A stretch of DNA of 64,000 nt from Bacillota bacterium (GTDB lineage: Bacteria > Bacillota > SHA-98 > Ch115 > JABLXJ01), in contig JABLXJ010000013.1 of assembly GCA_013178125.1 (NCBI GenBank), positions 7,751 through 71,750 of the forward strand. The letters run 5' to 3'. Below, in pieces: positions 1,401-57,219 of this stretch; position 1 is the first letter of the stretch; the number at the start of each line of letters is the position of its first letter. The position numbers were made by a program, and so were the translations under genes. The notes beneath the pieces were generated by a model. That model did no database searches and had not been told where the DNA came from. It worked only from the letters and a program-made list of their open reading frames with translations.

Positions 1401-2059
1401 TCCATCATATAGGGACACTGCTATCTGTGAACATTATTGCTATCTAAGTGCTAGTTCCTTAATTTGTGCCAGTTTACCAGTACGTCCCAGTGTTGCTGGT
1501 GTTGCGCTCCGGGGACGGCGCGCTTGCGGCGCGCCTCCGTTGGAATTTGGCGCGGGGGCCATGCCAAATTTCGAAGGCCCCCGTCACGCAAGCGCCGGCA
1601 ATACCTGGAAAAGTGGTAGTAATTTTCGGACTCAAACTTAGGAACATTGCCATGTACAGACATATGGATTGAGCGGCTCCCGGCTTCGCTGGGGCCGCTC
1701 CGCTTTATCCACCCCTGGTTTATCCGGTCCTGGCGACTAGTACTCCATCTCATAAGACCGTATAGGGTATAAGATATCGGGTATTACTCTATAGTTTGTC
1801 GGGCTAGTAGCCGCGCTCTGCCTCATATATCTAAATGCGTGACGAACGAAATACTCCCTAAACGCTTGAACCTATGGAACTCAATACCGGGTAGCCTTGA
1901 ATAGGTTACCTGGCAGCTCTGCGCCGGGCCTCTTACTGATACGTCGTGGCGACAAAGAAACTTGGCTGGGTGACGCACCCCTACCCTACCCTGAAAATAG
2001 CTCCACCCGCATCAGGGGATTTCTCTCTACCTGATGATGCTGCGTAGCGGCATGGGCGT

Positions 2060-2326
2060 CTGCCAAGAATTCTGGCAGGCCCGCCCCCACTCTGCCAAGA
2101 ATTTTGGCAGGTCAACCCCTATGGGCGGCAAAACTGCCAAGAATCTTGGCACCTTTACGCGCGACCTGCCAAAATTTTTGGCAGAGTGGGGGCGGGCCAA
2201 ACTGCCAAGAATATTGGCAGGATGAGCGAGTACCTGCCAAAAATCTTGGCATTTTCACATGTAGACTGCCAAGAAAGTTGGCACCCTCGCCTCTTTGCCG
2301 GGGCACCCTGCCAAGAAAGTTGGCAT
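2060..2326. repeat. Array of 8 copies of a 19-bp palindrome CTGCCAAGAAnnTTGGCAG (TGCCAA-N5-TTGGCA core)
   Basis: Copies start at 2060, 2092, 2134, 2166, 2202, 2234, 2266 and 2308, giving spacings of 32/42/32/36/32/32/42 bp. The arms are invariant; the centres and the GC-rich linkers vary. Confidence 0.9.
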
Positions 2327-2792
2327 GCACATAGTTAGGCTTGGGTTTGAGCGCATGTTCGGAGAGTAAAAGCTATCAGGATTTATGAAATGAAGTACTA
2401 GTTATCCTCGGAGATACTTTCATTCTCCGCGGCGCCGCAGCGCGGCATGGGAATCTAACATGGAAACGGAAGATGAGTTCCATGGAGAGCCGGGGCTATG
2501 GGTGGGTAAGCGCAGACAGGGGGGGGGGTGGTTCTTATATTTCATAATGTGAAATTTATTTTTATGAAATAGTACTTTGGCAGCAGGAAAGCAGAAATTC
2601 ATGGAGAAATAGCTCAATGTGGGTCATATTAGGAATCGAATTTCATATTACGAAATATATAAGGGATAAACCCCGTTTCCTGCAAGCGCCTGAGCAAGCT
2701 TCCAGGGATGGTGTTGACCTGACCTGGCAGAGAGTTCGAGGAGCCAGGGATCTGTAAGGGGTAATAAGGGATAACAAGGAGCTCTGTTTATC

Positions 2793-3665
2793 ATGGCTAG
2801 GCGGAAGGAACCCGTAAGTTCAGTGCAATCCGTCGACCGTGCGTTACGGATACTGGATCTTTTAGCCTCCGAGGGCCGCAGCCTCGGCCTCGGGCAGATC
2901 AGCGAGATGCTCGGCCTTAACGCCAGCACTACTCATCGCCTGCTCACGGCCCTCATGATACACGGCTATGTGGAGCAGCAAAAGGAAAATGACAAGTATC
3001 GTCTTGGTTTCAAGGTCCTGGAGCTTAGCAGCGCCCTCCTCCAGCAGATAGATCTCAGGCAGGAGGCATACCCCTACCTGCGGGAGCTGATGGAGAGGAC
3101 CGGAGAGGTTGTGCACCTGGCCATCCTCGATCAGGGCGAGGTTGTATATATCGACAAGGTGGAAAGCATCCAGACGCTTACAATGTACTCCAAGATAGGT
3201 CGTAGGGTTTACTGTCATTGTACTGCCCTTGGCAAAGTCCTCCTAGCCTCGCTAGATGATCGGGAGATCGAGGAGATCCTTTCCAAGAAGGGGCTTCCCC
3301 GGCTCACTAATAATACAATAACCTCCCTTGAGCAGTTCTACCTCCACCTCCAGACCGTGAGGGCAAACGGGTTCGCGATTGACGATGAGGAGCACGAACA
3401 GGGTATTCGATGCGTGGCTGCTCCTATCTATAACCAGGATGGCCGCGTTGTGGCAGCCCTCAGCGTGTCAGGCCCATCTATTCGGATGACGCGTGAGAAG
3501 ATTGAGCGGGTCACACCTCTGGTTACAGAATGTGGGGGGAAGATTTCTGAAAGGCTAGGTTACAGATCCAGAATTGGAACTACAGACTCAATCGAGGCAG
3601 TAGACTTAAGTTCACAATTAAATAACGGTGGTGCTAGGGATGCCAGAAGTCGTCACACTGGGTGA
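2793..3665 (+). CDS. IclR-family transcriptional regulator (KdgR-like)
   Basis: N-terminal wHTH (SVDRALRILDLLA...LGLGQISEMLGLNASTTHRLL) plus an IclR effector domain. Sits between eda and a KDG-kinase-like gene. Confidence 0.85.
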   Translation: MARRKEPVSSVQSVDRALRILDLLASEGRSLGLGQISEMLGLNASTTHRLLTALMIHGYVEQQKENDKYRLGFKVLELSSALLQQIDLRQEAYPYLRELMERTGEVVHLAILDQGEVVYIDKVESIQTLTMYSKIGRRVYCHCTALGKVLLASLDDREIEEILSKKGLPRLTNNTITSLEQFYLHLQTVRANGFAIDDEEHEQGIRCVAAPIYNQDGRVVAALSVSGPSIRMTREKIERVTPLVTECGGKISERLGYRSRIGTTDSIEAVDLSSQLNNGGARDARSRHTG

Positions 3666-29076: not shown

Positions 29077-29445
29077 ATGGAGGTTGGGGTTGGCCACCAC
29101 GGGGAGCCCGGGCTTAAGAGGGAGAAGTTAAGACCCGTGGATGAGATAGTGGATATGCTTTGTGCCGAGGTCATTCCCGATTTCCCATTTGAGGCTGGCG
29201 ATGAGGTCGTGACATTGATCAACGGCCTTGGAGCAACGCCTCAGCTTGAGCTCTACATAGCAAATAGGCGGCTCTTTAAGAACGTAACGGATAAGGGGAT
29301 AAGGATATACAGGGCGCTTGTAGGTGAGTTCTTCACCGCCCTCGAGATGGCGGGATTCTCCATCACCCTGTGCAGGCTCGATGAAGAGCTCAAGGAGCTA
29401 CTTGATGCTGAGGTCTATACCCCGTATTTCACCCAGGCCGGGTGA
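29077..29445 (+). pseudogene. C-terminal remnant of a dihydroxyacetone kinase DhaK subunit
   Basis: Begins at the EVGVGHHGEPG motif, which normally lies about 200 aa into DhaK. No N-terminal domain is present upstream: the dehydrogenase stop is 6 nt away. Confidence 0.7.
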
Positions 29446-32087: not shown

Positions 32088-32096
32088 TGGTATAAT
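32088..32096 (+). promoter_or_regulatory. Extended -10 promoter element (TGGTATAAT) upstream of the ATPase gene
   Basis: TGnTATAAT at 32088-32096, about 80 nt upstream of the ATG at 32177. No good -35 element. Confidence 0.35.
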
Positions 32097-32176: not shown

Positions 32177-34003
32177 ATGGTCGAGGCTGTTGAGGCTAAG
32201 GTGCTGCCGGTCGAGGAGATGGTCTCTGAGGAGGAGTTTACCGACCGGGTGGAGATACTGAGGGAGCTCGAGGACTGGTACCGCAACATCAAGCGCAGGA
32301 TCTCGAGCAGCCTTGCGCTGATCTCTCCGCGCCGCATGGGCAAGACCGCCGTGCTGGACAAGCTGGTCAATACCGTATTCTTCAAGGACTATGACGTAGC
32401 TCCCTTCTACTTCAAGATGAAACGGGAGGAGACCACGCTCCGGAAGTTCCTGCTGGAATATTACACTACGTTCTTCCGGCAGTATATTGCATATATGTTG
32501 AAAGATCCCGCTCTCTATAGGGATAGGAAGGTAGACCTTACGGCTCTTCTAGGCTGGAAGACGCGCGATGAGAGGGTGCGCTATGTTCAAGAGGAGCATA
32601 TTAAGGTCTTTGCCAGGCGATATGAGGAACGTGACTGGCGGGATGCACGAAACCACTGGGAGGATATGATCGCAACCCCCGAATTTCTCGGGGCGGTTCT
32701 CGGGACCCATGTAGCTGTTATTATCGATGAATTCCAGGATATGAAGTTTTACATTTTTGACGTAAGCGAGGAGCGCCTGGAACAGATCAAGAACGAGCGT
32801 AAGGGTGAGCCAGGCTATGGCGGGGTGGACCTTACAGCCACATATGACCGCCAATCCCAGAGCAGGCGCGCGCCCATGCTGGTCTCGGGCTCTGCCGTAA
32901 CCATGATATTCCGCACCGTCATGGGTGGGCCCCTCGGAGGCCGCTTCGGCTTCAAGTACTTGAAGCCCATGACGATCGAGGATGGCGCAACCCTGATGAA
33001 GAAGCTCCTCAGGGCGCGGGGCTTGGGCATCACCGATGAGCTTGCCATATACTTAAGTTCCAGGGTAAACGGCCACCCATACTACGTATACTGCTGCGCC
33101 GAATCTGACTACCCTGAAAAGGACTTCACCACGAAGGATGGCATCGACAGGGTCATAGAATACGAGGTCACAAGGGGCAAGATATTCGGCTTCTGGGAGA
33201 CCCATTTTGCAGAGAATAGGCAGTATATAAACCAGGATAACGATGTTGAGCTTGGGAAGAAGATCATCTACTACTTCACGAAATACAATAACGCCCCTGT
33301 GGATATCGGGGAGATAGCAGGCAAGCTCGGGGTGAGCAAGTACGCTGTTGAGGAGAAGATCGAGAAGCTCTACCAGGCAGACCTGGTCTACAGGAGCGAC
33401 TTCAAGTATTACACCTTCAACGACATCATGCTCATGCGCTACATCCAGCACCGGTATGAGAACGAGCTAAAGGATATCGAGAAGGTGGACCTCAAGGAGC
33501 AGGGGCTCTTCAACTACGTTAAGGGCAAGCTCCTCGAGATGGTGGTCCAGAATGTGATGTCCAGGTTCAACAACGAGGAGCTCGACGGTAGGCTTTTTGG
33601 CCATCCGGGGGAGGTCATCACAGCGCCCCTTTTCAGGATGCGGGGGGATACGGTTGTAAAGCTACCCACCTCCAGGGAGTACCAGATCGATGCATTCGGG
33701 ATATATGACCAGGATGGGACGAGGCACCTATGGGTTGCGGAGTGTAAGTATCGTAAGGGTGATCCCATGACATCAGAGGAGGTAAGGAAGGCGCTCGAGG
33801 CGGCGGATGCGCTGAAGGAGATGCGGATGGCCCGGGATCTCACGGTATGGCTTGTGTCGACGGGCGGGTTTACAAGGGATGCGCTTACGCTGATGCAGGA
33901 GAGCGAGGCGCAAAAGAGGCGCTGCCTTTTCTCAGGCCAGGATGAGATAAATGAGATAGCACGGCTGTATGGTATAGGGGTGAAGATTGTAGAGCTCGAG
34001 TGA
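32177..34003 (+). CDS. Arch-ATPase (PF01637-like) P-loop NTPase with a C-terminal DUF234/PD-(D/E)xK-like module
   Basis: FTDRVEILRELEDW...ISPRRMGKTAVL (Walker A), VAVIIDEFQD (Walker B), and C-terminal YQIDAFG...LWVAECKYRK (a D...ExK nuclease-like motif). ATG at 32177 follows GAGGGAGG; the ORF track start is 32135. Confidence 0.7.
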   Translation: MVEAVEAKVLPVEEMVSEEEFTDRVEILRELEDWYRNIKRRISSSLALISPRRMGKTAVLDKLVNTVFFKDYDVAPFYFKMKREETTLRKFLLEYYTTFFRQYIAYMLKDPALYRDRKVDLTALLGWKTRDERVRYVQEEHIKVFARRYEERDWRDARNHWEDMIATPEFLGAVLGTHVAVIIDEFQDMKFYIFDVSEERLEQIKNERKGEPGYGGVDLTATYDRQSQSRRAPMLVSGSAVTMIFRTVMGGPLGGRFGFKYLKPMTIEDGATLMKKLLRARGLGITDELAIYLSSRVNGHPYYVYCCAESDYPEKDFTTKDGIDRVIEYEVTRGKIFGFWETHFAENRQYINQDNDVELGKKIIYYFTKYNNAPVDIGEIAGKLGVSKYAVEEKIEKLYQADLVYRSDFKYYTFNDIMLMRYIQHRYENELKDIEKVDLKEQGLFNYVKGKLLEMVVQNVMSRFNNEELDGRLFGHPGEVITAPLFRMRGDTVVKLPTSREYQIDAFGIYDQDGTRHLWVAECKYRKGDPMTSEEVRKALEAADALKEMRMARDLTVWLVSTGGFTRDALTLMQESEAQKRRCLFSGQDEINEIARLYGIGVKIVELE

Positions 34004-34094
34004 TGGTTAGAGGCTGGATCCCTAAGGTCCCTATAATGTATATCATTGCTGTGCGCATCCCGGAGCCGTTCAAATTGGCGCTGTCAGCCGGGAT

Positions 34095-34382
34095 AGTGCT
34101 AGCCACGAGCACTGTCAGCCGGGAACAATGTTAGTGACCGACATCGTCTGTCAGGAACAATGCTAATAGCCAGCATCGTCCATCGGAAACAGTGCTGATG
34201 GTTAACATCATCCGTTAGGAACAATGCTAGTGGTTAACATTGTCCGTCAGGAATAATGTTGGTGGCCAACACTGTTCCCCCGGAATAGTGTTAATGGCTA
34301 GCACTATCCGGCGGTGACAATGCTAATGGCTAGCATCGTCTGCCAGGGACAGTGTTAATAGCTAGCACTATAACCCTCAAAT
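34095..34382. repeat. Nine tandem 32-bp units, each with a 19-21-nt imperfect palindrome ARTGYTRRTRRYYRRCAYYRT plus a variable linker
   Basis: Core starts at 34095, 34127, 34159, 34191, 34223, 34255, 34287, 34319 and 34351, an exact 32-bp phase. The arms covary (for example AGTGCT/AGCACT versus AATGCT/AGCATC). Confidence 0.9.
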
Positions 34383-34390
34383 CCACTGTT

Positions 34391-34425
34391 AGGCGGGGTT
34401 ATCCCCGCCTAATTATTATTTATTG
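34391..34425 (+). terminator. Rho-independent terminator
   Basis: Hairpin AGGCGGGG-TTAT-CCCCGCCT (34391-34410) followed by the T-rich tract AATTATTATTTATT. Confidence 0.6.
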
Positions 34426-34629
34426 TGCGCCCGGTAATTATCTTGGCTACTGTTTTACGGGTGCGCTCTGGAACGAGGTGGGACCTGATGGGATACTATT
34501 ATGGTTCATCATGGTTTTCTTATAGCAGATGTGGAGGGAATATGTATCTCACGGAGAATAGTAGTGGTAGTATGATCGTGCCGGGCTGTGAGACTATAAG
34601 GCCATATTAAGGTATATCTGAGGTATGCA

Positions 34630-35688
34630 TTGGCATGCCTCATATACATCGAGGCTGGTTTGTTTGTGAAAGATTATAGGCATAGAAATGACGGGTATAA
34701 CCACGGAGCCTACCGTGGCAGGGAGCAGGCCTCCGGGGCTGGGATCGCCGGCAGGGGCCGGTCGCGGACTCTCTTGTCTGGTCTTATCTTTGTAGCTCTC
34801 TTATTGGCGGGCTTTACGGGTATAGGGGTATTGAATAGAGGAGTATTGAATAGCCGCCAGGTAGGGAATCCCGAACCTGCTGGTACACCGAGCCTGTACC
34901 CTGCAGGGGAGTCGAGAAGGCTCCAAGGGGTCCGGGGGGAGGATGGTCCGGGCGAAAATCCAGGCGAAAGCCCGGTCGAGGGTCTGGGCGAGGGCTCGGG
35001 CGGGGACCTGCTTGACCGCGTGAGGGCGGCCGGGCCTGATTTCGAACGGCGGGTGACCGGCCTCGCGAAAGAGGCTGTGGAGCGCTTTGTGAGAACCGGT
35101 GTTGTGATGACGACTGCCACCCCACAGAGGGGTTATAAGAGGGGCTACGAGCGCGCCGGCCGCCATGAGCATGAGTATGAGCATGAGCATGGGCGCGAGC
35201 ACGCTGGCCAGGGAGAAGGGGCGGCTCAGGAGGAGGTTGACCTGCTGCTCTCGGAGCGCGCGGGCGTGTTCGTTACAATTATCGCAAATAACAGGGTCCG
35301 CGGCTGCGTCGGCAGCATCTCCCCTCAGCAGGATTCCATCGAGGCCGAGATCATCCATAATGCGGTAATGGCCGCGAGCGCTGATATGAGACATCCCCCG
35401 GTGCGGGAGGATGAGCTCGTTGAGTTGGGCTATTCGGTGGCGATCGTGGGGAGGGTCGAGCGGGTGGACCCGGGCATGGAGTTTGACCCGGGGGCGTTTG
35501 GCGTCCTGGTAACCCCGGTTCCGGGAGGGGAAGGCCGCGCAGGGGTGATACTCCCCGGGGAGGCGAGGACGTGGTCCAAAGCGGTTTCGTGGGCGATGCA
35601 GGAGGCGGGCATCTCGTCCGGAGAGGTATTCGAGGTTCAAAGGTTTCAGGCGGCGAGCTTCGGCAAGAAGCTCGAGCTTTACCGCTGA
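34630..35688 (+). CDS. Membrane-anchored AMMECR1-domain protein
   Basis: TM segment LLSGLIFVALLLAGFTGIGVL, a disordered Gly/Pro/Glu linker, a HEHEYEHEHGREH tract, then the AMMECR1 core (GVFVTIIANNRVRGCVGSISP...). Start uncertain (TTG at 34630 or GTG at 34666). Confidence 0.7.
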   Translation: MACLIYIEAGLFVKDYRHRNDGYNHGAYRGREQASGAGIAGRGRSRTLLSGLIFVALLLAGFTGIGVLNRGVLNSRQVGNPEPAGTPSLYPAGESRRLQGVRGEDGPGENPGESPVEGLGEGSGGDLLDRVRAAGPDFERRVTGLAKEAVERFVRTGVVMTTATPQRGYKRGYERAGRHEHEYEHEHGREHAGQGEGAAQEEVDLLLSERAGVFVTIIANNRVRGCVGSISPQQDSIEAEIIHNAVMAASADMRHPPVREDELVELGYSVAIVGRVERVDPGMEFDPGAFGVLVTPVPGGEGRAGVILPGEARTWSKAVSWAMQEAGISSGEVFEVQRFQAASFGKKLELYR

Positions 35689-48623: not shown

Positions 48624-48781
48624 CTAGGCCAGCTAGAGGGCCATTTCAGAAGCAAACATCCTGCTAAAGGCCATGTTGGAAAACAATAACAGTCGGTTTT
48701 AACCCCTTGGGGCCGTGGTACCCTAAACGTATCTCCCATTGTAAAAAATGGGAGGTTTTTACTTTGGCAAGGGCAAGGGTT

Positions 48782-49702
48782 ATGCGCATTGACAGGAAGG
48801 TAATCTCGACATGGCAGGAAGCCCTATCCGACTTTATCCTTTCCAGGCAAGCCATGGGTCTATCGCCCAGGACAATCAATGACTATCAGCAACATGTCAA
48901 GCTTTTCTTCTCCCGTTACCCTGACGCTTGGAACCCCTCAAATCTCAAACGAGCAGTGATGATGCACATGTCCCATCCTGTGGCACCCGCCACTTTTAAC
49001 AACCGACGGAAGTACCTGAAGATCTTCTTCAACTGGTGTATGGAGGAAGGCATATTCCCCGAAAACCCGTTGTCCAGAGTCCCAAAGAAGAGGGACGAAG
49101 GCCGGATCAGGGACATTAAAGCGGAGGTGCTTGAGCGTCTTATGTCCCTGCCAAACAAAAAGACCTACACTGGCCTGCGTGACTACGCTTTGATCCTCTT
49201 AAGTCTCGATATCGGGATCCGCCCAAGAGAAGCGTTATCTTTACTTGTGTCTGATGTTGACCTGGAAGGTAAGACGGTTACCATCAGGCGCGAGATATCC
49301 AAGACCAGGAAGACCAGTATCCTGCCCATTACTGAGCCGGTTGTCAATGCCCTGAAAAAGCTCGTTCATGTAAGACACCCCGTGTGGGATAAAGACGCAC
49401 CACTCTTCTGCACTAGAGATGGAACACCGCTGACAGTAAGAAGGTGGGAAGCAAGGCTCAAGAAATACTCAGACATCCTGGGAACGAGCGTCACTCCTTA
49501 CGATTTGCGCCACGGTTTTGCCACCTTGTTCTTGAGAGACGGAGGAAACGTATATGCTCTCCAGAAGATTTTACGTCACTCCAGTATGGATATGGTTAGA
49601 CGGTACTTACAATTTAACGATGAAGACATAAGACGACAGCATGAGCTTGCGTCACCTGTAGTGAGGCTCTTAACCAAGACGCCGAGGGTTGGTAAGATTT
49701 AG
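48782..49702 (+). CDS. Tyrosine recombinase / phage-type integrase
   Basis: N-terminal SAM-like domain and a catalytic domain with R...HxxR...Y (LRDYALILLSLDIGIRPREA; DLRHGFATLFL; LRHSSMDMVRRYL). Start moved to the ATG at 48782. Confidence 0.85.
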   Translation: MRIDRKVISTWQEALSDFILSRQAMGLSPRTINDYQQHVKLFFSRYPDAWNPSNLKRAVMMHMSHPVAPATFNNRRKYLKIFFNWCMEEGIFPENPLSRVPKKRDEGRIRDIKAEVLERLMSLPNKKTYTGLRDYALILLSLDIGIRPREALSLLVSDVDLEGKTVTIRREISKTRKTSILPITEPVVNALKKLVHVRHPVWDKDAPLFCTRDGTPLTVRRWEARLKKYSDILGTSVTPYDLRHGFATLFLRDGGNVYALQKILRHSSMDMVRRYLQFNDEDIRRQHELASPVVRLLTKTPRVGKI

Positions 49703-49763
49703 ACTCGACCCCTCAAGGACTGGGCATGTATATAAATCCATAGGCAGCTAGAAGAAAGGGCTC

Positions 49764-50456
49764 CTAAAAACCAGGAGCCCTTCTTTCCATCATATGTTTA
49801 CATGCAATCTTGCTGTTCGCCCATATCTCAAATCCCTTTTTCTTCGCCTCCAAGCAGAAGCCCACGTCTTCCCCCTGCTCGTGGTAGCAGTACCTTACCT
49901 CCTCTAATACTTTCTTTTTGAGGAGATATACCGCTCCTGTTACATCACATTGAAACAAGGCGTTTTTCGGGAAGTCCAGATAGTGAGTTATACTGCCGTT
50001 TCTGTGGGCCATTATGTTGGGGAATACCTTTGAGGGATCGTTCCATATCTGGGCGCTCACTATGTCTTTGTCTGCGACTATGAGCTCTTTTAAGGTATAG
50101 GGAGGAACCAGGATATCTGAGTCCACACTGAAGAGGTAGTCCGCTTCCATGTCCAGGGCCTGCTCAACCAGGATGTTTCTGAGCTCGGCGAGACTTACGT
50201 ATATCTTTTTTCTGACGTTCCACGTCCTCTGATCTTCTATCTGACCAAGGTCGTGCTCCAGGATGCGGATTTGTCTATACTCATCCTTATGCTCCCTGGC
50301 AAAGGACATGAGGATCTCTTTTGTCCTGTCTGTGGAGTCGTTTATGACAAAGCACAGAGATAGGTCATCCTTTGGGAAATCCAGGTTATATATGTGGTCC
50401 AGATATTCTCCTATGATCCAATCCCTATTCCTTACCGGGCAGCCGATCACTACCAT
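49764..50456 (-). CDS. Glycosyltransferase family 2-like protein
   Basis: VVIGCPVRNRDW..., INDSTDRT, and a DxD-like SVDSD motif. The assignment is by resemblance only. Confidence 0.55.
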   Translation of the reverse strand: MVVIGCPVRNRDWIIGEYLDHIYNLDFPKDDLSLCFVINDSTDRTKEILMSFAREHKDEYRQIRILEHDLGQIEDQRTWNVRKKIYVSLAELRNILVEQALDMEADYLFSVDSDILVPPYTLKELIVADKDIVSAQIWNDPSKVFPNIMAHRNGSITHYLDFPKNALFQCDVTGAVYLLKKKVLEEVRYCYHEQGEDVGFCLEAKKKGFEIWANSKIACKHMMERRAPGF

Positions 50457-50847
50457 ATGCCCTCGTGTATACCTCCACTATTTGCTGGGCTCTTGCTGCA
50501 TAGTTGTGCTTCTCATAGACCTCCTTCTGAGCCTTTCTCGCTATTTCTTGCCTTTCTTCGCTGTCCATGTGGAGGATCATTTCCATCAGTTCTAAAGTCT
50601 CCTCTTTATTTTTTGCCTGGAATATGAGGTCGCCAAAGAGGTTCTCCTGGGCTTTGGTGTAGTGGGCGAGGAATAAACCTCCTCCGCATGCTAGGGCTTC
50701 ATACGGCCTCATGGAGGTCTGGGTCGCGGAAGTATCGTCGCAGTTCATCCCAAGGATGATTTTCGCTGAGCTATATACACAAGGAAGCTCCTCGTAAGGC
50801 AGTATGCCACCATAGATGTCCATATGTTTCGGATATGTTCCATTCAC
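50425..50847 (-). pseudogene. C-terminal fragment of a CgeB/GT1-type glycosyltransferase
   Basis: Only the C-terminal domain is present (SAKIILGMN..., RPYEALACGGGLF...). The 5' part is replaced by IS21 debris at about 50846. Confidence 0.5.
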
Positions 50848-51097
50848 GAAGACCGGAGCTGAGCTTCTCTATCAATTTTGCGCCAGCCGCTATGAGAGGG
50901 GCAGCATGATAGTCACCACAAACCTGGAGCTTAGCCAGTGGACGGAGGTGTTTGGGGATGAGAGAATGACAGCGGCACTTCTTGATCGGCTCACCCATAG
51001 GGCCCATATCCTGACTTTAAACGGGGAGAGTTATCGTTTCCGGGAGAGCATGCGTAAACAAGAGGTAGAACGTGAGATGTTGCACACGCCTGCCTAG
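50846..51097 (+). mobile_element. IS21-family IstB helper ATPase, C-terminal remnant
   Basis: ...GAELLYQFCASRYERGSMIVTTNLELSQWTEVFGDERMTAALLDRLTHRAHILTLNGESYRFRES matches the IstB C-terminus. There is no Walker A region and no istA. Confidence 0.65.
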
Positions 51098-51605
51098 GCG
51101 TAGCCTAGGCAGGGGGTGGATCCCATTTTCGTGTCCGCAGTGGTCCCCTTTTTGATTGCCAAACACACCGGAGTGGAGCAATATAAAGCGCGTTCATTAT
51201 GATCTCCTTCCGGACAACATTGGGTTCTGGTTCTCAGATGACTGTGGTTCTAATCCGCCAGATGGTTGAATTGGAAATGTCTTTCTTCTACCAGGATAGG
51301 AGCTATAATTCTCGAAGGCTGTTCTCGGATGGTTTACATCGAACACCCATTCGAGACCCATTCGAAGAGATAAAAACAGCTGGATTTAGTGAATGTAGAA
51401 GTTTACCTTGGCCATCAAGAAGAATTCCCTGGGGTGCTGCCGGAGGTTTTTGCAACGGTTTCTTCTGTGGTGAAAGAGGTTAAGCCGGGAGACATCTTAC
51501 CTATCACTGCCAGGGTTGATGAGGCGATGACACAGGATAGTCCGTCGGACGATTCGATTTGGGCAATCTATCTACCTAATCTGTACTGGAGGTTGACTGA
51601 CTCGC

Positions 51606-53798
51606 TTATTCGCTATCGAAGATACTGCGAAATATGGCCTCGAATTCGGAAACCTCTCTACCATTGAAGACGACTTTGGGGCACAAAGCAAGTATTTGGT
51701 CCCTCATTGTGATTAACTCGCAAGCCCGCAGTGCGCGTGTGGGTTTATCGACGCCGGTAACGCCGTTAGGGTAATAATCTTCGATTGCGCCTTTGGCAAG
51801 CACATTAATCCTGAGCTCTCTCAGGCGTTCAAGTAGCTCATACTTATCATGGAGTTCTGGGTGCCCTTTACGTAGGAGATTGCGACGCCTTGTCTCAGTC
51901 TCCTCAGAAAAAAGTAACTCAATTTCATCTGCCTCGTCATTGGTGATTTGCCTACCATTAGCAATTTCCCGTGCTAGATATTTTAATCTCTGGTATCTTT
52001 CCTGCCAGGTGTACTTACGTACCATCTCTTTGATCTTTTCCCTTGTCAGAGTCCCATCGATTCCTTCATCTTTTGCAATCTTGTCGATGACCTGGAGAAA
52101 TGCTCTCCTCTGATCAGCAACGTCTTCGGTAACCTCTAGTTTATCGAAATCTTCAAGAAGTGCATCTAGGTCAAGTATAGCATGCACCTCAAGCCCGAAC
52201 TTTTCAAAGAACTCTCTATACCTCGCCACATTCCCCTTTCCGTTGATCCTTATGAGGGGGATATTGCGTGCTTCGAAATCCCACTCCTCGTTTAGGATGC
52301 GGGCAACATGGGCTAAATAGATGGCATCGGAATCTCCCTCAACTAGGACGACCTTGCGGGCAAAAAATGCTGCAGAATTGTTCTCGTAACAGATCAGCTG
52401 AAAGGCATCCTTCCGGCGAGTATCATGTAGCAGATTAATCACCATTGGATTTCCATATGGTTTTGCATCGGGTGGGTGATCTTTTGCTAATTTGATGAAT
52501 GTTCCGGTCCCTGTAGGAGAAAAAAATAGTGGTGAGTGAGTGGTGACAACGACATGGTGCTGTTCCGAAAGCCTCGTTAAGGCTTTAAAAAGAATCCGTT
52601 GTCCTGACGGATGGAGATATAGTTCCGGTTCTTCAAAGAGGAATAAGTAATGTGGTCCAGAGGATCTCCTTAGTTGTTGATCTTCGGGCATTGGGGCCCT
52701 TTGCTTCATCTGCAAATCCACATAGCTCCTCAGCAGGGCGAAGGTTACTGACCTCTTGAGACCATCGCCTTTGGTCTCTACCACATCTCTGACACCATCA
52801 TCCACCATTATCTTCGTGCTCGAGAAGACCTGCTTCAGCTCGGGCGGTGGGATGTGTAGTTGTAAATCAACTGTTGGGAAGTTTTCTCTCAGATACGTCA
52901 GTACTTGGGATTCTATTTCCCTAATGTGCGGCAGGCGATTATCGACTACGGCACCATTTTCCGTTGATGTCCTATTGAGCATCGAATTGAGTTTTTCAAA
53001 GGATGCGGCAATCTCCTGAACCTCTACTGTACCCTCTAGCATCCTTAACAGGACACCAATAAGCTTACCAAAGGTTGCGGATTCCTTTATCTTGATTTCA
53101 TCCGTAAGATCCTTGACAGCTGGGATGTATATTGGCTCTGGGAGTAGCCTTTTAATGCTATTTGATATTCCTGTCGGCAGCGGTAAGTCACCCATGGTCT
53201 TTTCGCTCTCTGGTAAAGCTGTAATTATCTCCTGTATTTTCTCCTTTGCTGCCGATTGGGAGGTGATCCCAGCAAATTGGCTTTTGAATTCAGGTAAATG
53301 GCTTTCAAGGATATCCCTGATCTCAGAACCACGCTTGCCCTTCAGGATTTTATCTATAACATCAGGATCAAATCGCTTATCCTTTGGTACCGACCCTAGA
53401 TAGTAATAGTCAGATGAAGATCCATCGACACCATAGCATCTTACGAGTGTTAGTTCCTTATTGGCGACAATGCCTTCCACTCGATCCCTATGTTCGGGGG
53501 CAATCCGCTCTAGATCATCATCGGATATATCACTAAGCGTGACCTCAAATCTAACTGGTTGTGATGGATCATAGAAATCTGAGCTATCGATTCTGGAGCC
53601 GGAGAGAAATAGGCTGAGAGCAAGCAAAACTGTTGATTTTCCTGTATTGTTCTCACCAATTATGCAGACGAATGGGGAGAGATCAATGCGACAGTCCCTT
53701 AGGGCACGGTAGTTGGAGACATGGAGTCTGCTTAGATTCACGGGATTAACGCCTCCTAATAAGACATGCCATACCATTTTATCTTGATTGGATTGCAT
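51606..53798 (-). CDS. OLD-family nuclease (ABC-type ATPase fused to a Toprim domain)
   Basis: Walker A GENNTGKST, FEEPELYLHP (Walker B/D-loop), VVVTTHSP (H-loop), and Toprim VVLVEGDSDAIYL plus a downstream acidic cluster ILDLDALLED. Confidence 0.8.
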   Translation of the reverse strand: MQSNQDKMVWHVLLGGVNPVNLSRLHVSNYRALRDCRIDLSPFVCIIGENNTGKSTVLLALSLFLSGSRIDSSDFYDPSQPVRFEVTLSDISDDDLERIAPEHRDRVEGIVANKELTLVRCYGVDGSSSDYYYLGSVPKDKRFDPDVIDKILKGKRGSEIRDILESHLPEFKSQFAGITSQSAAKEKIQEIITALPESEKTMGDLPLPTGISNSIKRLLPEPIYIPAVKDLTDEIKIKESATFGKLIGVLLRMLEGTVEVQEIAASFEKLNSMLNRTSTENGAVVDNRLPHIREIESQVLTYLRENFPTVDLQLHIPPPELKQVFSSTKIMVDDGVRDVVETKGDGLKRSVTFALLRSYVDLQMKQRAPMPEDQQLRRSSGPHYLFLFEEPELYLHPSGQRILFKALTRLSEQHHVVVTTHSPLFFSPTGTGTFIKLAKDHPPDAKPYGNPMVINLLHDTRRKDAFQLICYENNSAAFFARKVVLVEGDSDAIYLAHVARILNEEWDFEARNIPLIRINGKGNVARYREFFEKFGLEVHAILDLDALLEDFDKLEVTEDVADQRRAFLQVIDKIAKDEGIDGTLTREKIKEMVRKYTWQERYQRLKYLAREIANGRQITNDEADEIELLFSEETETRRRNLLRKGHPELHDKYELLERLRELRINVLAKGAIEDYYPNGVTGVDKPTRALRACELITMRDQILALCPKVVFNGREVSEFEAIFRSIFDSE

Positions 53799-53977
53799 AT
53801 ACTATATTTCCATAACCAACCATAGATTCCTGCTTGAGGACCAGGCTGGCCATTACAGATTTTTAGATGGCCTGCACGTTACAGACAAAGATAGTCGCAT
53901 TCCCGCGCCCTTGGTTATTCTCTTTGCGTGTATGATCTCACGAATAGGCCAACCGTAAGATTCTCATTATCACAAAC

Positions 53978-54006
53978 TTGCGAGGTAGAAGGAAATGGCA
54001 TATATG
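53978..54006 (+). promoter_or_regulatory. Candidate sigma-70-type promoter for the retron transcript
   Basis: TTGCGA (53978-53983), a 17-nt spacer, then TATATG (54001-54006), about 20 nt upstream of the left inverted repeat. The -10 element is imperfect. Confidence 0.3.
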
Positions 54007-54025
54007 TGTCGAAATATGCAGATTA

Positions 54026-54185
54026 GTGAGGGCACTAGTTTTAGGGTCATTTTGCATAGGGCGTGGCCGTGTGCCGGGCGTTAAGCCAGGCCGTTGAATT
54101 GATAGACTTGTGGCCGCGCGGAAGTCCCTCGTCTACCCTCTCGGGTAGCCAAGGTCCTTCCGCGCGGCTCTTGTAGTGCCCTCGC
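54026..54185 (+). ncRNA. Candidate retron msr-msd non-coding RNA
   Basis: Perfect 10-bp inverted repeats GAGGGCACTA (54028-54037) and TAGTGCCCTC (54174-54183) flank about 136 nt. That interval contains a perfect 12-bp stem (54113-54124 / 54157-54168) with a nested hairpin CTACCC-TCTC-GGGTAG. Lies upstream of the retron RT operon. Confidence 0.6.
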
Positions 54186-54220
54186 CCAATTTCGTTAACC
54201 TAGTGAAATGGTGGGATGAT

Positions 54221-55162
54221 ATGCCCTTTGATAGACGCCTCTACCCTGAATCCCTTCTCATACAGGTTCGGGATCGACTCAAGCGGGGCCCGACCGTGAG
54301 TCAGGCGATCCCAAAGTTTCTATTCTTATGTGGCAGGCAATTTGATGCAGGCAGTGGCGCTGATCATATCACTAACCGCGAGTGGGTCATGGAGCACCTC
54401 GACCATTACGCGTCTAAAAACATATCCAGTATCGTGGTTCTATTTGCTGAGCAGCTTTGGATTGGACTTGATATAGATTTGCTGACTTTTGAACACTTTA
54501 TGGCCGGGATAAGCGATATGGTCCTCCTGTTTGTGGAGAGCTGGGGGACGGCGGCTGAGCTCGGAGCCTTTGCTTCCATTGACAGTCTGGTTGAGAAGAT
54601 GCTTGTCTACAATGACAAGAAGTACAGGGAGTCTAACTCATTCATAAACAACGGGCCTATCAAGAAGATTCGGGATTCCAACCCGCATGGCGTGGTCTTT
54701 GGTAATCTGGACTCCATATTCGAGAGCGGGGAGCTTCACGATGCGCTTACACATTTGGATAGCATAAGGAAGACTGTCAAACCCAACACGAGTAACAGGG
54801 TCGAGTTTGTGCCATTTTGTTTAGAGCTTTTGGACCTTATTGGCTTGCTGGGACCAGTTTTGAGGAAAGATCTGATCGAAATATATAAGTCCGTCAAAGG
54901 GTTCGGTAATTTCGACCTTGTACTACCATCGAGCACGTCTTCCATCAGTGCCGCGTTTGCACTTGATTTCCTCCAGATCTCTTCCTTAGCTTGGGAGTCA
55001 TCTGGATATCTACGGCTAAATACGAAGGCAGTAAGGAAAAACTTGTGTCTGCTTGACCTAAGTGACCATGAATTCGAGTGCCTGCGTGCCAAATTTATGG
55101 CCAGGAAGATGAGGTACATAGGCAGTTCCAATCTTCCCGTCTTTGAGGAAAGATCAGCATGA
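54221..55162 (+). CDS. Retron-associated effector candidate (unknown family; possible NDT/SLOG-like N-domain plus a C-terminal helical/DNA-binding-like domain)
   Basis: ATGA stop/start overlap with the RT gene. Motif VLLFVESWGTAAELGAF. The ATG at 54221 follows GGTGGGA; the ORF track GTG start at 54176 would overlap the ncRNA arm. Function is inferred. Confidence 0.6.
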   Translation: MPFDRRLYPESLLIQVRDRLKRGPTVSQAIPKFLFLCGRQFDAGSGADHITNREWVMEHLDHYASKNISSIVVLFAEQLWIGLDIDLLTFEHFMAGISDMVLLFVESWGTAAELGAFASIDSLVEKMLVYNDKKYRESNSFINNGPIKKIRDSNPHGVVFGNLDSIFESGELHDALTHLDSIRKTVKPNTSNRVEFVPFCLELLDLIGLLGPVLRKDLIEIYKSVKGFGNFDLVLPSSTSSISAAFALDFLQISSLAWESSGYLRLNTKAVRKNLCLLDLSDHEFECLRAKFMARKMRYIGSSNLPVFEERSA

Positions 55163-56124
55163 GCTTGATTGAAAGAATCAGTCGCTCCTTGGATATAGAC
55201 GAGAATCTTATTAAGACCATCGCCCGGACCAGCAACAAATACTACCGGGTGTTCTCAATTAGTAAGAAATTTGGCGGAGTCAGGTCGATATACCATCCCT
55301 CACCAATTCTAAAGGTATTTCAATATTGGCTTGTGCAGAATCTCATTTCTCACCTGCCTGTGTCGGAACATGCAACTGCCTATGGGCTTGGATGTTCCAT
55401 TAAGAGAAATGCCCAACTCCATGCTGCGGCCAAGCATATAGTCCGCATGGATGTTAAGAACTTTTTTCCATCAATAAGATTCCAGCTCCTAGCTGATAGG
55501 ATTAATGCCTTCAGGGATACTATCCCAGGCGGAGCATCTTTAACTGAGGAAGATCTTCAACTCATCAATGGCATTTGTTTTGTGCGGGGTAGGCTAGTTA
55601 TAGGCAGTGTCTGTGCTCCAGCAATTTCAAACGCGGTTATGTACCCGTTTGACTGCGAGGTCTCCCAACAGGCTAGAGCTTTGCATCTCACTTACTCAAG
55701 ATATGCGGATGATATCGTGTTTTCGAGTAATGAATGGATTCACCCAAGTATTGTCGAGGATATCGATGGCCGACTGGGCAAATTCGGCATGAAACTAAAT
55801 CGCGAAAAGACGATTTTTATGGGCGGCTCTGATCGGAAGATGGTAACTGGCATTTTGCTCAACACTGGTAGATTATCAATAGGAAGAGCGCGTAAGGAAA
55901 GCATCAAGAAGATGCTATATCAGAAACTGCGTACCGGTGCCGGTGATAATCGGAAGATCTTGGGATATCTAAACTATCTTAGGGATATTGAGCCTGACAC
56001 GTTCAATAGGATGGTGGTTAAGTATAACTCGTTCTTCGGTAGGAATATAATGCGCGTACTAACGGAAGCGCCAGCAGATACACGCAAGGCTCAGGCCGAG
56101 GCGGCTCCAACTAAGAAACCTTAG
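55159..56124 (+). CDS. Retron-type reverse transcriptase
   Basis: YYRVFSISKKFGGVRSIYHPSPILKVFQYWL, NAQLH (retron NAxxH), MDVKNFFPSI, YSRYADDIVFS (YADD), KLNREKT, and RKMVTGILLN (retron VTG motif). About 320 aa with no maturase or endonuclease domains. Confidence 0.9.
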   Translation: MSLIERISRSLDIDENLIKTIARTSNKYYRVFSISKKFGGVRSIYHPSPILKVFQYWLVQNLISHLPVSEHATAYGLGCSIKRNAQLHAAAKHIVRMDVKNFFPSIRFQLLADRINAFRDTIPGGASLTEEDLQLINGICFVRGRLVIGSVCAPAISNAVMYPFDCEVSQQARALHLTYSRYADDIVFSSNEWIHPSIVEDIDGRLGKFGMKLNREKTIFMGGSDRKMVTGILLNTGRLSIGRARKESIKKMLYQKLRTGAGDNRKILGYLNYLRDIEPDTFNRMVVKYNSFFGRNIMRVLTEAPADTRKAQAEAAPTKKP

Positions 56125-56433
56125 ACTAGTATGCAGTATTGGCAATAGCCCTAAAATGTTTATATACCGATTAGTGACAATTGATAGCCAAAACGATGAG
56201 ATCTTCTCGCCGGGCGCGAGATAGATTTTGTGTCTAGGCAGCCTTGCTCATTCAGGATCATTTGGCTCATTTAGATCAGAGTCTATAACGCCACGATGTC
56301 ACTAGCCGGGGGATTGCTCGATGGCCCCAGTCCATTCCTTGTTGCGGATTGATGATATTTTGTAGCATATTCACTGGCAGCTGAAGCGAAAAGCCTGAGA
56401 CGATTTCCTAGTTATCAATGCAATGCCGCCGGA

Positions 56434-56715
56434 ATGCTTATTGTTCCGCTAGCCGCCGCTGCCCATAATGCCGGATCAAAACGCATGGTGCTCACATCCT
56501 CTTTGGCCGTGTATGGGGATGTGGGGGGCCGCCGCTTAGCGAATCGGCATTTCCATCACCAGTTTCACCTTACGCATTTCTGGGCTTATATCAATAAGGC
56601 CGGGCGGATGCTTGGTTATGAGCCGAGGTTTAGCCTTGAGCAAGGCATCCTGGAGAAAGCGGAATGGCTTAGCTGTTTGGCGAAGTGCCGGGAGGAAGTG
56701 GCGGCGGGTTTGTGA
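56434..56715 (+). pseudogene. Degraded fragment of an NAD-dependent epimerase/dehydratase gene
   Basis: ...GSKRMVLTSSLAVYGD... and ...LGYEPRFSLEQGI... are separated by non-homologous sequence. There is no N-terminal Rossmann part. Confidence 0.45.
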
Positions 56716-56757
56716 TAGTGATGCGCCGGGAAGTCCCGTGACCAGCACGGTCGCGTT

Positions 56758-57219
56758 TTGGACGAATCGATGGCGACACGGCGTTCAGCACATACCATGG
56801 CGGAGGAGATACTGAGTCAGACCCTTGACCGGCTTTCGCTGGGATATTATGAGGAAGCACGCGTTCTTGCGGAACGACTTCCGAATGAAGGCAAAGCGCG
56901 TTTTGTTCGTCAGGCGGCTGAAGCTCTCTATCTTCGGAATGAATTTGGCTATAGGAGTGCAGCCCGAATATTCCGGCGCTTTTACGAGACGGCTCAGATA
57001 TTCTCGAATGATAGAGAGGTTGGGAATCTAGCTAGGACTACTGCCCGGCTTGCGAGCTCAGCTAGCAAGATTGGAGACCTCATAGATCTTTTCCATAAAG
57101 CCCAACAGGCTAAAGCGGAAGCCATATGCCATGCTTTGGATCCGATGATGAATACGCCCTTTGCTAAGGAGTTGCTTCCTCGCACTTGCAGCATCTCGTT
57201 TTTCCCATCAAAAAGCTAA
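56758..57219 (+). CDS. Hypothetical protein (helical, no family recognised)
   Basis: A 153-aa ORF between gene debris and an IS3 copy. Coding status is uncertain. Confidence 0.35.
   Translation: MDESMATRRSAHTMAEEILSQTLDRLSLGYYEEARVLAERLPNEGKARFVRQAAEALYLRNEFGYRSAARIFRRFYETAQIFSNDREVGNLARTTARLASSASKIGDLIDLFHKAQQAKAEAICHALDPMMNTPFAKELLPRTCSISFFPSKS

Follow-up and report, generated by a model that had tools for sequence, protein, structure and literature searches.

A non-coding array of nine 32-bp units was found in the window, the 64,000-nucleotide stretch of DNA from an uncultured heat-loving Bacillota bacterium that was analysed here. We tentatively predict, at somewhat less than even confidence, that the array is a phased row of nine degenerate palindromic double-stranded DNA sites for a dimeric protein. 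This reading rests on the symmetry of a consensus whose arms vary independently, the symmetric placement of the invariant bases and the exact register of the units, which are separated by free linkers. We infer the binding, the binder and its effect; the candidates for the binder are the winged helix of the adjacent ATPase or an unlinked regulator. Few natural repeats are known in which the purine/pyrimidine (RY) class is kept everywhere, the bases are saturated and the arms of a palindrome show no covariation. The annotated features are listed in Table 1.

Table 1. Features of the array, its locus and the second palindrome array (window coordinates).
Feature	Position	Strand	Description
Family-A array	34089..34376	.	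Unit GGRAY-ARTGYTRR-TRR-YYRRCAYYRT-C plus a free linker of ~7 nt
Degenerate partial unit 0	34063..34088	.	Repeat comparison (D5, 94% identity; D2)
Right flank TCAAATCCACTGTTAGGCGGGG	34375..34397	.	Repeat comparison (D2, D6); linker-like partial tenth unit
Intrinsic terminator	34388..34423	+	Stem 34388-34413, 11 bp, 7 G-C pairs, 4-nt loop, tail TATTATTTAT
ATPase-wHTH-Mrr gene	32177..34003	+	608 aa; ATPase_2/STAND-like domain, ArsR/MarR-type winged helix (residues ~375-470) and C-terminal Mrr-type nuclease
Extended -10 TGgTATAAT	32088..32096	+	Read from the sequence; outside the positions covered by the consensus scan
AMMECR1-domain gene	34630..35688	+	Downstream context of the array
Family-B array	2058..2328 (palindromes 2061-2325)	.	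Eight CTGCCAAGAAT.TTGGCAG palindromes

Architecture of the array and its locus

The nine units run head-to-tail with starts at 34089+32k, and the exact 32-bp spacing of the nine core starts (34095+32k, k=0..8) that a preliminary description of this DNA had claimed was confirmed with zero indels. TRF called the array with a period of 32 in two pieces. This period is approximately 3.05 helical turns; measured against 10.5-bp phasing it drifts by ~0.5 bp per unit, which counts against the reading as binding sites. Counted in a 32-nt frame from 34089, each unit is an RY-palindrome spanning frame positions 4/5 to 27/28 and centred at core position 10 (frame position 16), in which 12-13 pairs are possible around a T-R-R centre of 3 nt. 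The earlier account of the unit as a palindrome thus stands, although at 25-29 bp the palindrome is longer than was stated. The centre always has the T-R-R orientation and all units are head-to-tail, both in the window array and in a second array from a related assembly (L002), where the exact 32-bp period without an indel is likewise found.

The bases G2, A5, A7, T9, G10, T12, C22, A23 and T27 of the frame are invariant in 9/9 window units and T15 is kept in 8/9, giving the skeleton A..A.TG.T...CA...T. The invariant pairs A5/T27, T9/A23 and G10/C22 are symmetric and define a half-site skeleton A...TG, with the half-site consensus AYRRTGYYRR when each half is read 5' to 3' on its own strand. 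Conservation is stronger in the left half-site than in the right, as A7 and T12 are invariant on the left only, and this asymmetry is unexpected for a simple homodimer and argues against the binding-site reading. Units are ~65% identical to one another and near-identical pairs are few (units 7 and 9 are one core base apart). The RY consensus given in the preliminary description, ARTGYTRRTRRYYRRCAYYRT, was reproduced with 0 mismatches to units 2-9; at up to 2 mismatches it has 13 matches in the window, all inside the array, against a chance expectation of 0.13.

Both edges of the array carry partial copies. The 3' end of unit 0 through 34093 (GCGCTGTCAGCCGGGA, 34078-34093) is a copy of the 3'-arm and linker of unit 1 at a 31-bp offset, and the right flank is a direct repeat of the left flank at 34070-34092 (TCAAATTGGCGCTGTCAGCCGGG). 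The array is bracketed by an imperfect direct repeat of ~22 nt (TCAAAT...CTGT.AG.CGGG). The linker-like CACTGTTAGGCGGGG after unit 9 is also the 5' arm of the terminator stem. Since the right flank copy makes up half of this stem, the arrangement suggests that the array may have grown from, moved with or carried along the terminator flank.

The array is intergenic, beginning 86 nt past the ATPase stop codon (34001-34003); it had been placed within the 3' region of the ATPase gene, but the 3' untranslated or intergenic gap after the stop is its actual position. No ORF in the window ORF list runs across it and 32 is not a multiple of 3, so a protein-coding repeat was ruled out. The clean intrinsic terminator noted earlier after the array was confirmed. 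It is one-directional, with a T-rich tail serving the + strand only, and it is the only downstream terminator on that strand. REP-like RNA elements typically sit between a stop codon and a terminator, which makes the location of the array a further point against binding sites. Judged from the order of stop codon, array and terminator, transcription of the array is reasonable, and the extended -10 is the likely promoter of an ATPase transcript that would run through it. A promoter belonging to the array itself was rejected: the consensus scan returned no candidate, and the TATAAT at 34032-34037 lacks both a -35 element and a TG extension. No array-type palindromes occur in the ATPase promoter.

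The ATPase gene belongs to an ORF of 622 codons ending at 34003. A fold search with its AlphaFold model (pLDDT 72) returned the Pyrococcus Walker ATPase 2qen, the Mrr-like AF1548, ArsR/SmtB/MarR repressors and plant NLR cores, while a sequence search of solved structures gave no match. The family is multicopy in its own Bacillota lineage and in Desulfonema, Magnetomorum, Beggiatoa-like and Anaerolineales genomes. At least five copies were seen in one MAG, and many contigs end within the gene (loci L001-L058). The gene has no PADLOC family and often lies among toxin-antitoxin or defence genes (PIN-MazE, HEPN-MNT, GmrSD, SLFN-AlbA). DNA similarity between the ATPase paralogues stops exactly at the stop codon, which indicates that the array is not part of the repeated ATPase gene.

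The neighbours of the array encode PAP2, TatC, ATPase-Mrr, AMMECR1, alpha-2-macroglobulin and VanW proteins. A relative (L052) has an AMMECR1 gene of 76% identity but no ATPase gene and no array upstream of it, and synteny with the window resumes only at about 34535, making 34004-34534 lineage-specific. No partition or replication genes (ParA/ParB/SopAB/Rep) were found within +/-10 kb of the array. A replication origin or terminus at the array was ruled out as there is no GC-skew switch, and no tRNA, tmRNA or known RNA family was found.

Substitution pattern and arm pairing

Every variable core column in units 2-9 differs by transitions only, as reported in the preliminary description, although 13 of the 21 columns vary and not the 12 counted there. 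The pairwise transition to transversion ratio among these units is 203:7 in the palindromic part and 52:40 in the 7-nt linker, and between window units and L002 units it is 216:3 and 54:22 respectively. When columns were counted over window units 2-9 and L002 units 2-4, seventeen of the palindromic part were transition-only and one held a transversion, compared to one transition-only column and five with a transversion in the linker (Fisher p=0.0008). The earlier remark that transversions occur in the linkers is in agreement with these counts. The three centre positions are RY-constrained as well in both assembled arrays.

A mutation bias by itself does not account for this pattern. The lineage background obtained from two same-species strains is 41:10 (~4:1), and against it 18 variable columns would all be free of transversions with a probability of no more than 0.02, even if each column had undergone a single event. 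Units of the two arrays differ from each other by 8-18 positions (edge units aside), about as much as the 7-16 positions that separate units within one array, which shows that the two-state columns are saturated. The units behave like random draws from an RY-degenerate consensus: A and G, or C and T, are interchangeable at the non-invariant positions, and the RY class and the A...TG / CA...T skeleton are kept. On this comparative evidence the purine/pyrimidine pattern of the units is under purifying selection. A metagenome contig from an independent sample covers 34061-34249 with 0 differences, so the array is stable DNA and not an assembly artefact, and ongoing hypermutation or sequencing ambiguity was ruled out on the same ground.

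These counts also bear on a reading that we consider unlikely, in which the array is a selfish or neutral minisatellite, that is, a small palindromic element, multiplied through slippage or unequal exchange or else transposed, that persists in variable intergenic DNA and has no function in the cell. A neutral ratio of ~4:1 should leave transversions behind, whereas the transition-saturated palindromic part has almost none, and the probability bound given above for 18 variable columns applies equally to this case. Indels are absent, the identity of ~65% between units is too low for ongoing slippage, and two independent samples agree exactly in the sequence of the array. The few near-identical unit pairs and the direct repeats that bracket the array speak for such an origin, as does part of its distribution (see below).

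The preliminary description had proposed that the two arms of each palindrome covary. Standard pairs were counted in the palindromic register over 14 aligned units, and the proportion of paired cells was 72.6% on the + strand, against 73.1% after the 3' partners were shuffled among units, and 81.5% against 81.6% on the - strand. The raw figure for positions 2/18 holds (Watson-Crick in 7/9 units) but the formal test finds no covariation on either strand. Sliding the partners out of register lowers pairing to 27-55%, which shows that the palindromic register itself is correct, and the equality with the shuffled mean shows that the pairing level comes wholly from the RY make-up of the columns. 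The two arms therefore vary independently within the RY consensus, and arms that are independent in a correct register are expected of two separately read half-sites and not of a hairpin. Selection on a palindrome is retained from the earlier account and covariation as evidence for a hairpin is not. The better pairing of the - strand than of the + strand (81.5% compared to 72.6%) is a point against the binding-site reading.

Folding was considered in connection with a REP/BIME-like RNA, an explanation that we regard as somewhat unlikely. It would place the array in the 3' UTR of the ATPase mRNA as nine imperfect hairpins of 10-13 bp; these and the terminator would jointly shield the 3' end or act as a transcriptional insulator. 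Only transitions would be tolerated, since the wobble-type R-Y oppositions that they produce (G-U, A-C) leave the helix geometry intact. The array does lie between the stop codon and the only downstream same-strand terminator, every window unit folds on its own (-5 to -14 kcal/mol) and the whole-region fold has a z of -9.5. In addition, drift of stems through G-U intermediates would give the transition bias naturally, and each of the two family-A arrays follows a coding region, in line with the published location of REPs (PMC3733652). On the other hand, covariation is absent on both strands and A-C oppositions on the + strand, the one served by the terminator, are at chance frequency in units 2-9 (21/104 cells, random expectation 25%). 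The RY constraint extends to the three centre positions and the invariant bases are unneeded for stability. Hairpin stability beyond the RY pattern was not supported, as the energies of the window units are only marginally better than those of RY-preserving randomisations (p ~0.03 for either strand) and the L002 units have no advantage over such sequences. Rfam gave no match at the gathering threshold, nor at E<=1.

Distribution of the arrays and a second palindrome family

The second family-A array was found in L002 (GCA_013178415.1, class SHA-98 / Thermoaminiphila). It consists of five units with the exact 32-bp period, RY consensus and orientation of the window array, and it begins ~940 bp downstream of the stop of a paralogous ATPase gene, past a tautomerase gene and a peptidase remnant. 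It is the only family-A array in the ~73 kb sampled from this assembly. The ATPase-wHTH-Mrr gene is the sole neighbour common to both arrays of known context, upstream and in the same orientation in each case. Contigs from two metagenomes (subsurface and hot spring) carry further, different family-A arrays, whose readable units obey the RY consensus and depart from it at centre positions only.

Among ~12 ATPase loci related to the lineage and 45 taken from GTDB genomes, L002 is the only carrier, and a general link between the array and the ATPase family was rejected on this count. The ~10 lineage-related and ~45 distant ATPase loci without the array also stand against the binding-site reading. 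Viral, GTDB-genome and JGI-metagenome collections were scanned with a two-unit RY pattern, with 0 matches in each; a looser three-unit scan gave 0 viral matches and 39 metagenome matches, all of them unrelated satellites, and BLAST against plasmids and phages found no family-A relative. RY-autocorrelation signals in L026, L029 and L050 were traced to unrelated near-identical tandem repeats. Among the repeats seen at other ATPase loci are near-perfect 31-bp hairpin tandem repeats in a gammaproteobacterial MAG (L026, 8190-8341), 33-bp tandem repeats in Parabeggiatoa (L050, 2211-2400) and a hairpin with a 19-bp stem directly after the ATPase stop (L004, 7817-7865), none of which is related to the array.

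L056, a contig from a biogas fermenter, belongs to the species of L002. It retains the genes for the ATPase, the tautomerase and DAPDH as well as the peptidase remnant, with flanks that are 97.5-99% identical, but it lacks the array. A 422-nt cassette with the five-unit array (L002, 6698-7119) is swapped for 243 unrelated nucleotides (L056, 4480-4722) at a site downstream of convergent genes. The absence at an identical locus shows that the array is dispensable at the strain level, and the sequences compared point to an element that is lineage-restricted and strain-variable. That a same-species strain keeps the ATPase without the array is again a point against the binding-site reading. The presence/absence between strains with its swap to two family-B palindromes, the absence of the array upstream of the orthologous AMMECR1 gene in L052 and its confinement to one lineage all favour a minisatellite. 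The preliminary description had counted absence from a close relative with an otherwise syntenic locus among the marks of neutrality; such an absence was found for the sister array, although plain neutrality is still opposed by the transition-only constraint. Two to three ~70-nt repeats (TTTGATG.C.CCGGCTG...CAGGCTTGATGG) were also noticed right after the ATPase stop in L002 (5850-6030); their copy number differs between L002 and L056, and L056 has 65 nt without an L002 counterpart.

A second array of palindromes (family B) occurs in the window, flanked by the KDPG-aldolase gene and the IclR-regulator/KDG-kinase operon. Its palindromes (TGCCAA-N5-TTGGCA) are spaced by 32, 42, 32, 36, 32, 32 and 42, with base-conserved arms of 6-7 bp, a free A/T-rich centre of 5 nt and linkers that are free in both sequence and length, a pattern that is the usual operator signature for a dimeric protein. 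The arms TGCCAA/TTGGCA fall within the family-A RY class TGYYRR/YYRRCA. The combined pattern TGYYRR-N3-5-YYRRCA has 18 occurrences in the window, eight in family B, eight in family A and two elsewhere, and its density over 529 kb of other loci is at chance level. The 243-nt replacement cassette of L056 holds two family-B palindromes 33 bp apart, and both families thus occupy the same kind of place. The operator-like family B and the winged-helix gene next to family A also point toward the binding-site reading. Two other palindromes, ATTTCATAATGTGAAAT and ATTTCATATTACGAAAT (2540-2665), lie 130-250 bp upstream of the IclR gene (2793-3665) and look like IclR operators.

A more far-reaching proposal, which we hold to be improbable, is that families A and B form an undescribed class of chromosomal site arrays in the Bacillota class SHA-98, defined by TGYYRR-N3-5-YYRRCA in a ~32-bp register. 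These would be cis-acting platforms on which a winged-helix protein is loaded or parked through RY shape read-out, and this protein may be the multicopy STAND-like ATPase-wHTH-Mrr conflict protein whose gene adjoins both family-A arrays of known context. If such a read-out extended over the whole half-site, transitions would be free and transversions forbidden.

Family B also enters into a very improbable explanation in which the array is a wobble-tolerant target or sponge, each arm pairing in trans with a common G/U-rich RNA to which A/G and C/T changes are neutral. This would account for RY-only tolerance together with the missing arm-to-arm covariation, and the all-G/U partner of the 5' arm TGYYRR, UUGGCA, is the family-B arm. 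The invariant bases of such a target should however be G or U only, whereas both strands have invariant A and C, and no partner sequence was found in the window outside the arrays.

Relation to known repeat systems and possible mode of action

From its sequence the array would be a variant among known kinds of repeat, none of which it matches fully. REP and BIME elements are the closest by size, place and strain variability. BIMEs bind IHF and gyrase and also act in RNA. The array differs from these elements in its low copy number, one per roughly 65 kb sampled, and a dispersed REP was ruled out within the window because the motif is confined to the array. Its arms do not covary, and no RAYT (Y1) transposase was found among the window ORFs scanned against Pfam. 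REPs have an unpaired terminal tag (GTAG/CGTC); the 3' end of the units is YRTC, reading CGTC in units 2, 3 and 8 and TGTC, CATC or TATC in others, and it lies inside the palindrome and not in an unpaired tail. REPs have been described as short imperfect palindromes of 20-40 bp that are clustered, non-coding, mostly downstream of ORFs and strain-variable, with an IUPAC-degenerate consensus (Di Nocera et al. 2013, PMC3733652), and the RY-palindrome of each unit agrees with this size. They form head-to-head or tail-to-tail dimers, head-to-tail arrangements being 'negligible' (PMC3733652). The units of the array, in contrast to such inverted pairs, are all head-to-tail with an exact period.

By presumed mechanism, the closest systems are the sopC, parC and iteron arrays, which like the present array are tandem repeats in helical register. 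The sopC centromere has twelve repeats of 43 bp, and sopC, parC and plasmid iterons are all tandem direct repeats with an internal inverted repeat. Cooperative binding as in these arrays would explain both the exact period and the independent arms. The array differs in being chromosomal and within a transcription unit, with no adjoining partition or initiator genes, and its units are far more diverged and RY-degenerate. The likeness to iteron or centromere arrays suggested in the preliminary description is therefore kept as far as an array of binding sites is concerned, which the independence of the arms favours, and the sopC-type centromere is not, as partition and replication genes are missing nearby. 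Pairs of NrdR boxes lie 31-32 bp apart from centre to centre, and the Lrp sites in pap are a related case. These are likewise palindromic sites ~32 bp apart, bound cooperatively on one helix face, but they number two to six in promoters compared to nine in a 3' region here.

The CIRCE element is the HrcA operator TTAGCACTC-N9-GAGTGCTAA, a 9-bp inverted repeat upstream of hrcA/groE/dnaK. Between 34095 and 34371 the arms of the array resemble it, since AGTGCTAA fits ARTGYTRR and TTAGCACT fits YYRRCAYY exactly over 8 nt, and TAGCACT or AGTGCTA occurs exactly in some units. The arm order within a unit is however inside-out, the distance across unit junctions is 2 bp too long and the array is not upstream of chaperone genes. 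Canonical CIRCE was not found in the window at up to 3 mismatches and was ruled out by the differing spacing and arrangement. The resemblance may be due to chance (~1 in 256 per operator compared).

ToxI, the antitoxin of a type III toxin-antitoxin system, has 5.5 repeats of 36 nt. The array shares with it the order of a tandem array of ~32-36 nt, an intrinsic terminator and a same-strand gene. It differs in that its repeats are ~65% identical, L002 has no toxin-like gene and the next gene encodes an AMMECR1-domain protein that is found without the array in L052; a type III antitoxin was ruled out as this protein is not an endoribonuclease toxin. A CRISPR array, in which unique spacers of ~25-40 bp separate conserved repeats, was excluded by the total period of 32 bp, the variable part of ~7 nt and the low identity of the 'repeats' (~65%), and a CsrA sponge by the position of GGA at the stem base and its absence from several units.

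For the favoured reading as protein-binding sites, we propose that each 32-bp unit would comprise two inverted half-sites 5'-AYRRTGYYRR read by one dimer, most likely a dimeric winged-helix-type protein. Sites three turns apart would place successive dimers on roughly one helix face and could allow cooperative binding, a mode of action that may be likened to that of iteron, centromere and phased-operator arrays. A row of bound protein between the stop codon and the terminator could block or modulate read-through. The RY constraint at almost all of ~20 positions is an argument against such sites, as proteins normally leave some positions free. If a protein does read them, they would represent a natural case of shape or RY recognition over ~10 bp per half-site, repeated nine times in register, and a cis element for a widespread multicopy ATPase-nuclease family. 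If the array is only REP-like or selfish its value would be smaller, although it would still provide a new family of repeats in a recently cultured bacterial class, together with the lesson that a palindromic consensus need not mean a hairpin.

Two other loci in the window were noted. A low-GC island (48707-57219) encodes a tyrosine integrase (48707-49702), an OLD-family AAA_15+TOPRIM nuclease on the - strand (51606-53798) and a reverse transcriptase (55159-56124) preceded by an uncharacterised 328-aa ORF (54176-55162). It resembles an integrated island of defence genes, possibly of retron or DRT type. Directly after the alcohol-dehydrogenase gene, a 122-aa ORF (29077-29445) matches only the C-terminal third of the Dak1 (dihydroxyacetone kinase) domain and may be a truncated or split gene.
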